The notes: generated from the letters alone by a model not told the origin. 36,976 nucleotides of DNA from an uncultured Lachnospiraceae bacterium (GCA_902790095.1 CADAQV010000001.1:1-36976), one strand, 5' to 3'. Counted from the stretch's first letter, positions 940 to 9,418 are shown. Program-made: numbers and translations.

Positions 940-2334
940 ATGAAGCATTCATTATACATAAAATTTCTGCTCGTCTACCTTGGATTTGCCGTTCTGGGTG
1001 TAGTGCTGATCGCCACCTTAGGCGTCGGGCTCAACAAAAGCTACCGCTTGAACCTCATAGAGGAACAGCTGTATGACGAGGCATATTATATCGTGAGCAC
1101 GTTCAAGACGGACCTGCTTTTAGAAGATGCCGTAACCGATCCGAGACTGGACAGCATTCAGGCTCTTGAAAAAAGCCGCGACTGCAGGCTATGGATCTTA
1201 GATCCTTCATCTAAGGTCCTGTATCCACAGACAAATCTTGTCATTACGGATTTTGACCCTGCAAAAAGCAATTCCCATCACGCCTTTACATCAAGGCTTG
1301 CCGACAGCCAGGCAGAGGATCAGATATGTGTCTATGCGCCGATAGTGAGCGGCTTTAAGACCACAGGCTATGTTATAATCTCATATCCGCGCTCATCAGC
1401 CATGGCGCAGATAAATCAGGCGACGAATGTACTTTATGTCATTACCCTCGGGGTCTTTCTGATATCACTTATTCTGCTTTTGTTCATACATATCCTGATA
1501 CTAAAGCCCATTAAGCAGATCACAAAGGCCGCCTCGGAATACGCTTCCGGAAACCTGGAATACAAATATAACTATTCTTCAAATGACGAGATCGGTGTGC
1601 TTTCAAAGACGCAGCTTTTCATGGCATCTGCTCTTGCAAGCACTGCGGAAGACCAGCGCAAATTCATAACGAATGTATCGCACGACTTCCGCTCTCCCCT
1701 TACATCCATCCGAGGCTACCTTGAGGCCATACTGGACGGCACCATCCCTCCCGAGCTTGAAGGGAAATACCTTCGCATCGTAAAGGATGAGACCGACAGA
1801 CTTTCACAGCTGACCCAGAGCATTCTGGATCTTAACACCTTTGGAAAGAGCGGTGTTATTTTAAACATTTCGGATTTCGATATCCACCACGAGATAAAAA
1901 AGATACTTGCGACTTTCGAAGGCCGCTGCAGCGAAAAACATATCGTTTTCGAGCTCACCTTCGCATCCCGCGAACTTTTTGTTCACGCTGACCTTGGCCG
2001 GATCCAGCAGGCTCTCTACAACCTTATCGACAACGCCATAAAGTTCAGCCCGCAAAACTCCACCATCTTCATAGAAACCAGCGAGAACAAGGGCAAGGTC
2101 TATGTTTCCGTAAAAGACCAGGGCCCCGGCATCTCCGCCGAAAACCTCGGCAAGATATGGGACCGTTTCTACAAGGTCGACCCTTCAAGAGGGCGCGACA
2201 AAAAAGGCTCCGGTCTCGGGCTTTCCATCACGCGTGAGATCATTCAGGCCCATGGGGAAAATATAGATGTAATAAGCACCGAAGGAGTCGGGACGGAATT
2301 TATATTCTCGCTTATGCCGACAAAGACTGAATGA
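940..2334 (+). CDS. Sensor histidine kinase (TM-sensor loop-TM-HAMP-HisKA-HATPase_c)
   Basis: 464 aa, starting 10 nt after the regulator stop. Two hydrophobic segments flank a roughly 140-aa loop. H-box VSHDFRSPLTSIRGY, N-box LIDNAIKFS, G1 DQGPGI, G2 GSGLGLSI. Confidence 0.95.
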   Translation: MKHSLYIKFLLVYLGFAVLGVVLIATLGVGLNKSYRLNLIEEQLYDEAYYIVSTFKTDLLLEDAVTDPRLDSIQALEKSRDCRLWILDPSSKVLYPQTNLVITDFDPAKSNSHHAFTSRLADSQAEDQICVYAPIVSGFKTTGYVIISYPRSSAMAQINQATNVLYVITLGVFLISLILLLFIHILILKPIKQITKAASEYASGNLEYKYNYSSNDEIGVLSKTQLFMASALASTAEDQRKFITNVSHDFRSPLTSIRGYLEAILDGTIPPELEGKYLRIVKDETDRLSQLTQSILDLNTFGKSGVILNISDFDIHHEIKKILATFEGRCSEKHIVFELTFASRELFVHADLGRIQQALYNLIDNAIKFSPQNSTIFIETSENKGKVYVSVKDQGPGISAENLGKIWDRFYKVDPSRGRDKKGSGLGLSITREIIQAHGENIDVISTEGVGTEFIFSLMPTKTE

Positions 2335-2360
2335 GGCAACTATAAAAAGAAAAAGAAAAA

Positions 2361-2402
2361 CATACCCCGCAGGCTAAAATACCTGACAGGGTATGTTTTT
2401 TT
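2361..2402 (+). terminator. Intrinsic terminator of the two-component operon (also the first unit of the repeat array)
   Basis: CATACCC(CGCAGG)...(CCTGACA)GGGTATG hairpin followed directly by T7 (2396-2402), 27 nt after the kinase stop. Confidence 0.55.
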
Positions 2403-2834
2403 ACCGTCAGCCAGAATAATGCATACCCTTTAGGACATTTTTCTTGTTTGGGTATGACTGCCGTCAAGGATATTACATACCCTTTAGGACATTTTTCTTG
2501 TTTAGGTATGACTGCCGTCAAGGATATTACATACCCTTTAAGACATTTTTCTTGTTTGGGTATGACTGTCATCAAGGATATTACATACCCTTTAGGGCAT
2601 TTTTCTTGTTTAGGTATGACTGTCATCAAGGATAATGCATACCCTGCAGGACATTTTTCTTGTTTGGGTATGACATGCATTAAGAAAAAAGCATACCCTA
2701 TGGGAAGAATTGCCGGTTAGAGTATGACATAAATGAAAAAAACATCATACCCTGAGAGCAAAATATCCCCTTTGGGTATGACATTCGCCAAAAGCAAGGT
2801 ATACCCTAAAGGGCATTTTGATGCTCAGGGTATG
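2361..2834. repeat. Phased array of nine CATACCC-N21-GGGTATG inverted-repeat units, eight of them at an exact 54-bp period
   Basis: Left half-sites start at 2361, 2422, 2476, 2530, 2584, 2638, 2692, 2746 and 2800. The spacer between half-sites is 21 nt in all nine units. Units 2-5 are near-identical over the full 54 bp. Units 1 and 6-9 share only the half-sites, spacing and phase. Confidence 0.9.
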
Positions 2835-2845
2835 AAAAAAGCAAC

Positions 2846-2876
2846 AAAAAAGGACCGGGGGGGACCAGTCCTTTTT
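2846..2876. terminator. Bidirectional hairpin terminator (probable ftsH terminator, right boundary of the repeat array)
   Basis: AAAAAGGAC-(13-nt loop containing G7)-GTCCTTTTT, so the stem is flanked by a T-run in both orientations. The GC core is only 4 bp, hence moderate confidence. Confidence 0.45.
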
Positions 2877-3033
2877 CGTGTTACAAAAACCATATAATGT
2901 ATTGGGGGGGTTACGTGCGTAATATTAGCATAATTTCCTCCAAAAGTGTGCCCAAACTTCACAAAAATACAAATTTATTTTTGTGCACATTATACAAAAC
3001 GGGCCTTTGTTTGCTTTTTCGACAAAAGAAACA

Positions 3034-4875
3034 TCATGTAAAGAGGGCTTCAAACTCTTCTGTGGTGATCCTTTCCCTTTCCATAAGAAGGGCGGCAGAC
3101 TTGTGCAAAACGTCCATATGCTGCTTTATTATCGCTTCTGCTTTCTTGTAGCAGTCGTCTACTATCTTTCTTACCTCGCGGTCGATAGCTGCGGCCGTAT
3201 CTTCACTGTATTCGTGGGTGTTGCCAACACCGCCGCCGACAAATACCTGACGGTCGTTGTCACCGTAGTGGATCATGCCGAGGGATTCGGTCATGCCGTA
3301 ATCCATGACCATGGATCTTGCGGCTGCCGTAGCATCCTTTATGTCCTGAGAGGCTCCTGTCGTAACGTCGCCAAAGATCAGCGCTTCGGCTATTCTGCCG
3401 CCAAGGCAGACCTGAATATGCTGAAGGATGCGTTCTTTTGAAAGGTACATGCGATCCTTATCGGGAAGGGGCATGGTATAGCCTGCTGCGCCGACTCCTG
3501 TGGGGATGATGGAAATGATCCTTACGGGGTCCATAAGAGGAAGAACTTTAAAGAGTATCGCATGGCCGGATTCGTGGTAGGCCGTGATCCTCTTTTCGTC
3601 CTCGCTTATGATGCGCGACTTCTTTTCCGTTCCTATGCTTACCTTTATGAAGGACTTGTCTATATCTTCCTGCCTGATGAACTTTCTGCCGTCCTTTACG
3701 GCGCTTATAGCTGCTTCGTTCATAAGGTTTTCAAGGTCTGCACCCGTGTAGCCCGCGGTGGTCTGAGCGACCTTTTCAAGGTCGACATCGTCTCCTAAGG
3801 GCTTGTTTGCGGTATGCACCTTTAATATCTCGCTTCTGCCGCCTATATCGGGCCTTCCGACAACGATCTTGCGGTCGAATCTGCCCGCACGAAGAAGCGC
3901 GGGGTCAAGTATATCGACTCTGTTGGTGGCCGCAAGAACGATTATGCCTGAATTGAATTCAAAACCGTCCATTTCCACAAGGAGCTGGTTTAAGGTCTGT
4001 TCTCTTTCGTCGTGGCCGCCTCCGAGGCCGCTGCCTCTTCTTCTTCCCACGGCATCGATCTCGTCTATAAAGATGATGCAGGGTGCGCTTGACTTGGCCT
4101 CGTTAAACATATCCCTTACACGGCTCGCGCCGACGCCGACAAACATTTCGACAAAATCGGAGCCGGAGATCGAAAAGAACGGAACTCCTGCTTCCCCTGC
4201 TATAGCCTTTGCAAGAAGTGTCTTACCTGTTCCTGGCGGGCCCTCAAGGAGTATGCCCTTGGGAACATGTGCGCCCATCTCGTTATATTTTGCGGGGTCT
4301 TTAAGGAAATCGACTATTTCTGTCATTTCCTCTTTTTCTTCTTTTAAGCCTGCGACATCTTTAAAGGTGGTCTTGTTGTCCTTTTCACCCATTTTCCTTG
4401 CACGGCTCTTTCCGAAGGAGAGCATCTTGTCGCCGCTCTTCATGCCGCTTTCCATATATGCGGCATTTCCGATGGAAGAAAACAGAACGAACAAAAATGC
4501 TATGACTACTCCCAGCAGAAGTATGGGCAGCACCGTGGTCTTTATGTAGCTGTCGCGCTGTACGTCCGTGAGCGTAAAGCCCACCTTATTCTCTGCAAGG
4601 AACTTTTGTATCTCGTTTACATCCGATACATAGAATATAAATTTGCCGTCCCCGTATTCAAACACAACATATCCGGCGGGGACTTCCTTTTCCTGCACCA
4701 CCTTTACGGAATTGACGGTCTCGTTTTTGGTGACAAGGCTTTTGAAATAATCGCCCGTAACCGACTGTGAATAGAAGGTGTCCGCATTTTTGTAAATGTA
4801 AAGAAGATAGAGCATAAGCCCAAGCACTATCAGAAAAAACAGGATACCGGATCGGTTCTTCTTTTTTGCCACCAC
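3034..4875 (-). CDS. ftsH: ATP-dependent zinc metalloprotease FtsH
   Basis: 613 aa. N-terminal TM pair, Walker [14 protein letters not shown], Walker [10 protein letters not shown], second region of homology [20 protein letters not shown], zinc site HESGHA. Confidence 0.97.
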
Positions 4876-9331: not shown

Positions 9332-9418
9332 CAAAAAGTGAGACGGGGGGACGGGGTCAGAGTCTCATTTTTGTGGCAAAAATGAGACTCTGACCCCGTC
9401 CCCCCGTCTCACTTTTTG
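9332..9418. repeat. Perfect 87-nt palindrome (two 42-nt arms, 3-nt loop)
   Basis: CAAAAAGTGAGACGGGGGGACGGGGTCAGAGTCTCATTTTTG / TGG / exact reverse complement, with no mismatch. Each arm contains a nested TGAGAC-N17-GTCTCA. Confidence 0.95.

Follow-up and report, generated by a model that had tools for sequence, protein, structure and literature searches.

A phased array of inverted half-sites between a two-component operon and ftsH: one locus of an apparently undescribed Lachnospiraceae repeat family

The spacer between a two-component operon and the convergent ftsH gene of an uncultured Lachnospiraceae bacterium contains nine inverted heptamer pairs of the form CATACCC-N21-GGGTATG, eight of them in strict phase. 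The locus raises the question of whether such an array serves the adjacent genes, for instance as a binding platform for the response regulator encoded next to it, or represents a repeat of a more general kind. A sequence-only reading of the window (the entire stretch of DNA analyzed here, a metagenome scaffold of 36,976 nucleotides) offered three roles for the array. A REP/BIME-like element turned out to be the nearest of these, and a multi-hairpin RNA is compatible with it; a platform for the adjacent regulator is not supported by the results described below.

The array at the kinase/ftsH locus

On the plus strand of the window, the genes for an OmpR-type response regulator (223–930) and a histidine kinase (940–2334; the nearest homologues come from named Lachnospiraceae) converge with ftsH (3034–4875), hprT and tilS on the minus strand. 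The features between the kinase and ftsH are listed below, with the strand where one applies.

2344–2360: A-rich tract (AAAAAG, 2.8 copies) that abuts unit 1 upstream; on the minus strand, the U-tract of the unit 1 hairpin
2361–2402: unit 1 and a T7 run; the most stable hairpin of the array, putative bidirectional intrinsic terminator of the kinase operon
2422–2691: units 2–6, the phased 54-bp "young" block; units 2–5 are near-identical, unit 6 has the same spacer and a diverged linker
2692–2745: unit 7, with a spacer and linker unlike those of other units and the right half-site GAGTATG; window strain only
2746–2799: unit 8, with a 35-nt core that is approximately the reverse complement of unit 9; window strain only
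2800–2834: unit 9 (TATACCC-N21-GGGTATG), the distal anchor, kept in all strains
2844–2879, minus strand: G+C-rich hairpin between A and T runs, the ftsH terminator; not a repeat unit

The left half-sites start at positions 2361, 2422, 2476, 2530, 2584, 2638, 2692, 2746 and 2800. The initial description of the array (2361–2834) as nine inverted half-site pairs is accurate with respect to these positions, the inner spacer (21 nt in nine of nine units) and the phase: from unit 2 on, the period is exactly 54 bp, with zero indels, and unit 1 is out of phase, at 61 bp from unit 2. However, only five units are exact, the other four each containing a half-site with one mismatch, namely AGGTATG (units 3 and 5), GAGTATG (unit 7) or TATACCC (unit 9). 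A search for the exact pattern yields five matches in the window and none in 100 shuffled sequences; with up to two mismatches, there are nine matches against a shuffle mean of 0.07, and none was found outside the array in the remainder of the 37-kb window, and a single array is visible in these 37 kb of the genome. Tandem Repeats Finder identifies a period of 54 with 4.7 copies and 92% matches at 2422–2674. The spacers and linkers of units 1 and 6–9 had all been described as unrelated; for unit 6, this holds for the linker, but its spacer is identical to that of the young units in 19 of 21 positions. Similarly, the extension of the right half-site to GGGTATGAC, reported for seven copies, is exact in four and reaches seven only when half-sites with one mismatch are admitted. 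A feature absent from the initial description is that unit 8 closely matches the reverse complement of unit 9 across all 35 nt, so that these two units can fold into one long hairpin.

Unit 1 is flanked by the A-rich tract and by the previously noted T7 run, which is indeed present at 2396–2402. The energy of its hairpin is –15.5 kcal/mol on the plus strand and –21.5 kcal/mol on the minus strand, and the unit is kept in all four strains compared below and in the more distant L064. Judging from these features, unit 1 looks like a bidirectional terminator of the kinase operon; it is not listed by the consensus terminator scan because its loop exceeds the 8-nt limit of the tool. The scan does report the ftsH terminator, a 15-pair stem followed by TTTTTTGT; this hairpin has the layout of a terminator on the plus strand as well, and it is conserved in array-free sister species. 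Given the A and T runs next to both hairpins, the phased array lies between two apparently bidirectional terminators. A second A-rich tract follows unit 9 (2835–2851), and the array-free sister species has one A-tract at the corresponding place.

The block that separates the ftsH stop codon from the terminator (2880–3033, minus strand) is likewise conserved in array-free sisters (L091, 5455–5560; L093, 5490–5560; L094, 5490–5570). On the minus strand, it consists of a TATAAT-like box, GGAGGAAATT-ATG CTA ATA TTA CGC ACG TAA (encoding the peptide MLILRT, which is identical in L091), a C7 run and the terminator. No Rfam match was found for this block, which, from its layout, may be a small RNA or a mini-ORF unit.

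Four relatives with kinases 56–70% identical to that of the window retain the convergent synteny mutS2-RR-HK/ftsH-hprT-tilS, the ftsH-side terminator and the adjoining conserved block, but no half-site pair was found in their 41–295-bp kinase/ftsH spacers. Thus, the array is a lineage-specific gain. Three other assemblies, 97–98% identical to the window, have an array at this locus that differs in composition.

Window: unit 1, four young units, unit 6, units 7, 8 and 9; 9 units
L046: unit 1, five young units, unit 9; 7 units
L069: unit 1, five young units, unit 9; 7 units
L053: unit 1, two young units, unit 9; 4 units

Because the same locus with the same unit types is seen in four independent assemblies, the array is not an assembly artifact; the counts of the near-identical young units (4–5 in the window, 5 in L046, 5 in L069 and 2 in L053) could be distorted by short-read assembly. 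Conservation at the orthologous locus extends to close strains, with 4, 7, 7 and 9 units, and not to sister species, which have none. Units 1 and 9 are fixed anchors, and turnover occurs in the middle of the array, including, in L069, a chimera of unit 9 and a young unit that fits unequal recombination. Across 17 young units, one of the 14 half-site columns is variable (G/A at the first base of GGGTATG) compared with 11 of the 40 other columns; this contrast within the locus is weak, and it is the old units and the other loci that provide the strong evidence of constraint. The element would have entered, or arisen in, the convergent spacer after the split from the nearest sampled relatives, with later expansion and contraction through unequal recombination or slippage. 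At the kinase/ftsH locus, the array is a recent, strain-variable insertion between terminators and not a control site for the neighboring genes. The sole likely local contribution would be that of unit 1 as the terminator of the kinase operon, and the rest is probably a parked, nearly neutral copy. The message for the window itself is modest: the array is no part of two-component or ftsH regulation.

The window also contains a second repeat of about 38 nt, AAAAGTGAGACGGGGGGACGGGGTCAGAGTCTCATTTT, in the form of a perfect inverted doublet (a REPIN-like long hairpin) at 9334–9416. A single copy of this repeat is located between array unit 9 and the ftsH terminator in L046 (6435–6472) and L053 (4814–4849) and is missing from that place in the window and L069, an insertion polymorphism of another small palindromic element.

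A repeat family in gut and rumen Lachnospiraceae

A scan of one genome per species (185,579 species) with the pattern CATACCC-N18-24-GGGTATG-N16-22-CATACCC identifies 32 loci, of which 18 belong to 12 Lachnospiraceae MAGs labeled Roseburia, Acetatifactor or uncultured, several per genome and at most three per MAG. The other 14 loci compare with about 13 expected by chance, as calculated from the pattern and the size of the collection, and are consistent with chance. The exception to chance among these consists of four loci that represent one betaproteobacterial ortholog (L014, 760–844; L017, 6430–6514; L020, 6887–6965; L007, 3934–3992), where a conserved 356-aa gene (MGYA..PLYR..) is preceded, at about 40 nt, by two dyads in tandem, ATACCCCAT-N10-ATGGGGTAT. 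From their sequence and placement, these dyads resemble a paired operator whose half-site is almost that of the Lachnospiraceae arrays, but they are a different thing from these arrays.

A scan of metagenome contigs with a narrower pattern detects 57 loci, about 48 of which are arrays. After the removal of orthologous duplicates, there are 41 non-redundant arrays of 2–19 units each, with 532 half-sites. In these 41 arrays, the start-to-start distance from GGGTAT to ATACCC is 27–28 bp in 228 of 235 cases (97%), and the distances from ATACCC to GGGTAT are 24 bp (183 cases), 25 bp (12), 27 bp (11) and 54 bp (5). The periods are 51, 52 or 54 bp, and mixed 51/52-bp arrays occur. The array in the window belongs to the class with 27 bp from ATACCC to GGGTAT; the N21 spacer is particular to this minority 54-bp class, and the tightest distance across the family is the one from GGGTAT to ATACCC, that is, the part originally designated the linker. 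The 6-mers GGGTAT and ATACCC are common to the arrays, the seventh base being less constant, and outside arrays, half-sites occur at chance density (0.41 per kb). The sequence between half-sites is locus-specific (e.g., it is unrelated among L043, L044, L051 and L058 of one sample series); at least six arrays are found on contigs from one sample series. A weak common loop consensus, with G at position 1 and AAA at positions 10–12, suggests common descent of the arrays. A search of related genomes, as proposed in the sequence-only reading, thus finds the same half-sites and geometry in Lachnospiraceae MAGs and metagenomes.

Several loci depart from the common layout. In one Roseburia MAG, a fixed composite, unit-N48-unit-N18-unit-N48-unit, is present at three loci (L004, 5102–5353; L008, 3549–3798; L027, 4607–4882); the outer units are near-identical direct repeats at L004 and L027 and differ between loci. 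This composite form might be a footprint of how units get added. A variant array at L045 (14104–14355) has a 110-bp period and two alternating kinds of ATACCC...GGGTAT hairpins, one with an inner CGCCC-TTTA-GGGCG stem and the other with the near-perfect 11-bp palindrome ATACCCGCCAT-TC-ATGGCGGGTAT.

The arrays are not coding repeats, given that 52-bp and mixed periods are common, in addition to the 51-bp period, and that stop codons are present in units 1 and 7. In the window, where the 54-bp period is divisible by 3 and leaves some frames open, no plus-strand frame remains open beyond unit 7; a 122-aa ORF on the minus strand spans the near-identical units only, and its Pfam match is below the threshold. 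The scan of viral contigs for the array pattern gave 0 matches, and no match was found in a BLAST search of phage and plasmid collections, which argues against a phage or plasmid origin. Rfam 15 yields no match at the gathering score over the whole window and only chance-level hits (E >= 0.39) in 2250–3050; no tRNA or tmRNA was found in the window either. A literature search by motif sequence and by topic found no description of a GGGTAT/ATACCC array family, so the initial impression that this is not a described family still stands. All members found come from MAGs or metagenome contigs, with no cultured isolate that bears a name among the sources, which may account for the absence of a description. 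The array in the window is one locus of a lineage-restricted, apparently undescribed family of Lachnospiraceae from the gut and rumen.

Hairpins, strand bias and alternative explanations

In the family unit, inverted 6–7-mers, GGGTAT(G) and (C)ATACCC, alternate about every 26 bp, and each half-site can pair with either neighbor, giving a string of short hairpins. The arms are 6–7 bp long, rarely up to 11 (e.g., the perfect 11-bp stem ATACCCGCCAT..ATGGCGGGTAT in L045), and the loops are 10–22 nt. Pairing beyond the 6-mers exceeds that in shuffled loops in both registers, with 26 versus 8.3 and 33 versus 9.2 extra pairs, counts that are reached by 0 of 5000 shuffles. Covariation is seen at the closing pairs of the ATACCC...GGGTAT register (nine A-T and six C-G) and in longer extensions such as CGC/GCG, CGCC/GGCG, ACA/TGT and AAA/TTT. 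The 6-mer stems themselves show no covariation, which suggests that the 6-mer sequence, and not pairing alone, is read. Both spacers are constrained in length over unrelated loci, a property that a simple RNA hairpin model does not require.

Most arrays are 60–70% purine on one strand; of the 18 arrays located between co-directional genes, 15 have a sense strand with a purine content of at least 60%. Arrays between convergent genes show no consistent purine skew, and the value for the window is 0.49, so the family-level strand argument says little about the copy in the window. Furthermore, most genes in Firmicutes are co-oriented with replication, so the purine bias could instead track the replication strand. 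Among half-site transitions, 6 are compatible and 17 incompatible with G-U pairing on the sense strand; these variants are few, and their direction is opposite to the purine skew. In the pyrimidine-rich (antisense) orientation, the arrays present small terminator-like hairpins followed by T-rich runs, which would explain selection for orientation inside transcription units.

Some arrays begin 6–30 nt past a stop codon; others follow an upstream terminator and occupy the following gene's leader. For the arrays in 5' leaders, no upstream promoter could be assigned with confidence. One human-gut locus has an array immediately upstream of an ABC-transporter ATPase gene, with 48 nt between the array and the start codon and with 4–11 units among samples (orthologous loci L037, L062, L065, L071, L074, L075, L076, L084, L085 and L087). 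The L074 variant of this locus, a natural variable-number leader, has A+T-richer loops. Around the arrays, 66 non-redundant flanking proteins, mostly of central metabolism and chaperones, match 83 Pfam families, and no family occurs in more than two of them; among the 25 of the 83 families that were listed, there is no regulator or transposase. Thus, no recurrent neighbor gene of either kind accompanies the arrays. The recurrent motif AGAAAG prompted an analysis of the loops as Shine-Dalgarno-like sequences, which was negative: the predicted duplexes of the loops with the anti-Shine-Dalgarno sequence are no more stable than those of shuffles matched in composition (P = 0.42), and those of the linkers are less stable than with shuffles.

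On balance, we favor, with moderate confidence, the explanation that the arrays are an interspersed hairpin repeat family similar to STAR or REP/BIME, probably forming transcribed RNA hairpins. The arrays would act as transcribed RNA in 5' leaders, between cistrons and in 3' regions. The purine-rich strand would be the sense strand, leaving the loops unpaired and U-poor, so that hairpins could form without termination of transcription, and the invariant stem bases would imply recognition by a sequence-specific factor. The most likely mechanism is that of hairpin modules read at the RNA level by some factor; this part of the proposal, for which strand composition is the pointer to RNA, is about evenly balanced between right and wrong. 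A more far-reaching version, in which the arrays are the cis-element of an undiscovered hairpin-recognition system, with a protein reading the stem base on RNA or single-stranded DNA and the number of units in a leader tuning the fate of the mRNA, appears unlikely. If true, the strain-variable unit number (4–11 before the ABC-transporter gene) would amount to contingency-type regulatory loci in abundant gut and rumen commensals.

The presence of arrays at dozens of unrelated housekeeping loci and their lineage-specific presence between the kinase and ftsH would also be expected of a selfish mobile hairpin of the REP/REPIN or PATE type, with single-stranded DNA dyads moved by an HUH/Y1 (RAYT-like) or other transposase. 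The arrays would then grow locally, and the strand bias would reflect the replication strand; this account overlaps in part with the explanation that we favor. The combination of invariant stem bases and a covarying inner stem is expected of protein-recognized hairpins, unit 8 repeats unit 9 in inverted form, A-rich tracts flank the array on both sides compared with one tract in the empty site, and another small palindromic element of the species is polymorphic for insertion next to the array. However, loci of one genome have wholly different loops, in contrast to the uniform REP populations that an active RAYT maintains; a GTAG-type foot is missing, and the arms are just 6–7 bp and enclose long loops; virtually no single units occur outside arrays. 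A tblastn search with an approximate IS608 TnpA query detected no Y1 homologue in about 570 kb of fetched loci, which is a weak negative because the query sequence is approximate. We regard mobility of this kind as a possible explanation, on the doubtful side.

The invariance of the 6-mers, with no covariation inside them, and the tight length of both spacers over unrelated loci would also fit a multi-site platform on double-stranded DNA for a GGGTAT-binding protein (nucleoid-associated, iteron-like or decoy), phased by the 51–54-bp period, which is close to 5 x 10.4 bp, or about five helical turns. Proteins reading such a motif are plausible given the betaproteobacterial tandem dyads (ATACCCCAT..ATGGGGTAT), which have nearly the same half-site and an operator-like position upstream of a gene. 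Against this, a double-stranded site would have no use for a strong purine asymmetry that follows gene direction, the covariation of the inner stem extensions implies folding, the center distances of 24 and 27–28 bp (2.3 and 2.6 turns) leave paired half-sites facing different sides of the helix, an awkward arrangement for a simple dimer, and no regulator gene is recurrent beside the arrays. Such a platform is therefore quite improbable.

Neutral tandem duplication of a terminator hairpin, a minisatellite without family or constraint, would account for the near-identity of units 2–5, the strain-variable copy number and the only modestly lower variability of the half-site columns in the 17 young units (1/14 versus 11/40). 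It is already contradicted by the cross-genome comparison, in which 41 independent arrays over genera have the same half-sites and geometry with unrelated loops, and by units 1, 7, 8 and 9, which keep the half-sites while all else differs; we consider it very improbable, and the original argument for constraint on half-sites and geometry is borne out. Growth of the array out of the kinase terminator, suggested in the sequence-only reading, is not upheld either, the motif being family-wide and older than the locus.

Finally, the idea that the array is a set of operators for the neighboring OmpR-type response regulator, or an RNA that titrates CsrA, has in its favor the nearness to the two-component operon and the GGA motifs of the young units, and nothing else, and can be dismissed almost entirely: relatives with the same operon have no array, the genes next to arrays elsewhere are unrelated (83 Pfam families, none recurring), the array is located 3' of the kinase between terminators, OmpR-family regulators bind direct repeats with a period of about 10–11 bp, and GGA is conserved neither between units nor between arrays, the loops being generally purine-rich.

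Comparison with known repeat systems

REP/BIME, BOX and STAR repeats shape mRNA stability, termination and genome plasticity, and are known mainly from cultured pathogens and model organisms. In the hairpin repeat family that we favor, near-invariant 6-mer dyads conserved over genera, strict spacing and free loops with a transcription-linked purine bias would point to a specific reader, either a protein or an RNA-structure requirement. In practical terms, work on gut and rumen metagenomes could be affected, in that the arrays may mislead CRISPR callers, assemblers and strain typing; they could also serve as natural variable-number markers.

The arrays resemble CRISPR in having regularly spaced, short, partly palindromic repeats, and a "false-CRISPR" class of miscalled repeat arrays has been recognized (PMC5294841). 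They are not CRISPR arrays, in which identical repeats alternate with unique spacers of at least about 26 nt, usually close to cas genes: the 51–54-bp period is too short, the spacers recur within an array, the neighbors are housekeeping and not cas genes, and there are dozens of loci per clade.

The BOX elements of Streptococcus pneumoniae consist of boxA, boxB and boxC modules that are conserved over their whole 45–59 bp. Similarly to BOX, the Lachnospiraceae arrays are a modular, probably transcribed intergenic repeat of Firmicutes in which an internal module is amplified in tandem and folding is predicted to be strong; unlike BOX, they have no terminal modules, and only the dyad is conserved.

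REP/BIME elements of Proteobacteria can act as terminators or stabilizers of mRNA 3' ends. REPs are near-complete palindromes of 20–40 nt with a GTAG/GTGG foot, are homogeneous within a genome and are tied to a RAYT gene. The arrays share with REP/BIME the extragenic location of alternating palindromic motifs in tandem clusters, between convergent as well as co-directional genes, polymorphic copy number and dispersal of many intergenic copies (several loci per MAG); in addition, units 8 and 9 form an inverted doublet as in REPINs. In contrast to REPs, only arms of 6–7 bp are shared, the 10–22-nt loops are locus-specific, so that neither loops nor linkers are homogeneous across the loci of one sample series, and there is no GTAG-type tetranucleotide. 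The tblastn search of the fetched loci with the approximate IS608 TnpA query found no RAYT homologue, which is a weak negative.

The STAR repeats of Staphylococcus aureus consist of a short motif that recurs every ~50–56 bp, with spacers that are alike within a locus and distinct between loci; they expand and contract from strain to strain, have distinct anchor units at the ends and are found in mRNA leaders and 3' UTRs, and both their function and the mechanism of their spreading are unknown (PMC3532100; PMC5294841). The arrays described here are likewise interspersed intergenic repeats of a Firmicute, with a motif interval of about 50 bp, locus-specific recurring spacers, distinct end anchors, locations in leaders and 3' regions, and expansion and contraction between strains. 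However, the STAR motif is a 14-nt G+C-rich direct repeat, T(G/A/T)TGTTG(G/T)GGCCC(C/A), a signature that is absent from the arrays, where the conserved motif is the inverted GGGTAT/ATACCC hairpin pair of 6–7-mers; the Lachnospiraceae arrays are also much stricter in geometry and belong to another host clade. Because the defining features of both STAR and REP/BIME fail, the arrays are members of neither family; in behavior, they are nearest to STAR and, in form, to REP/BIME clusters.
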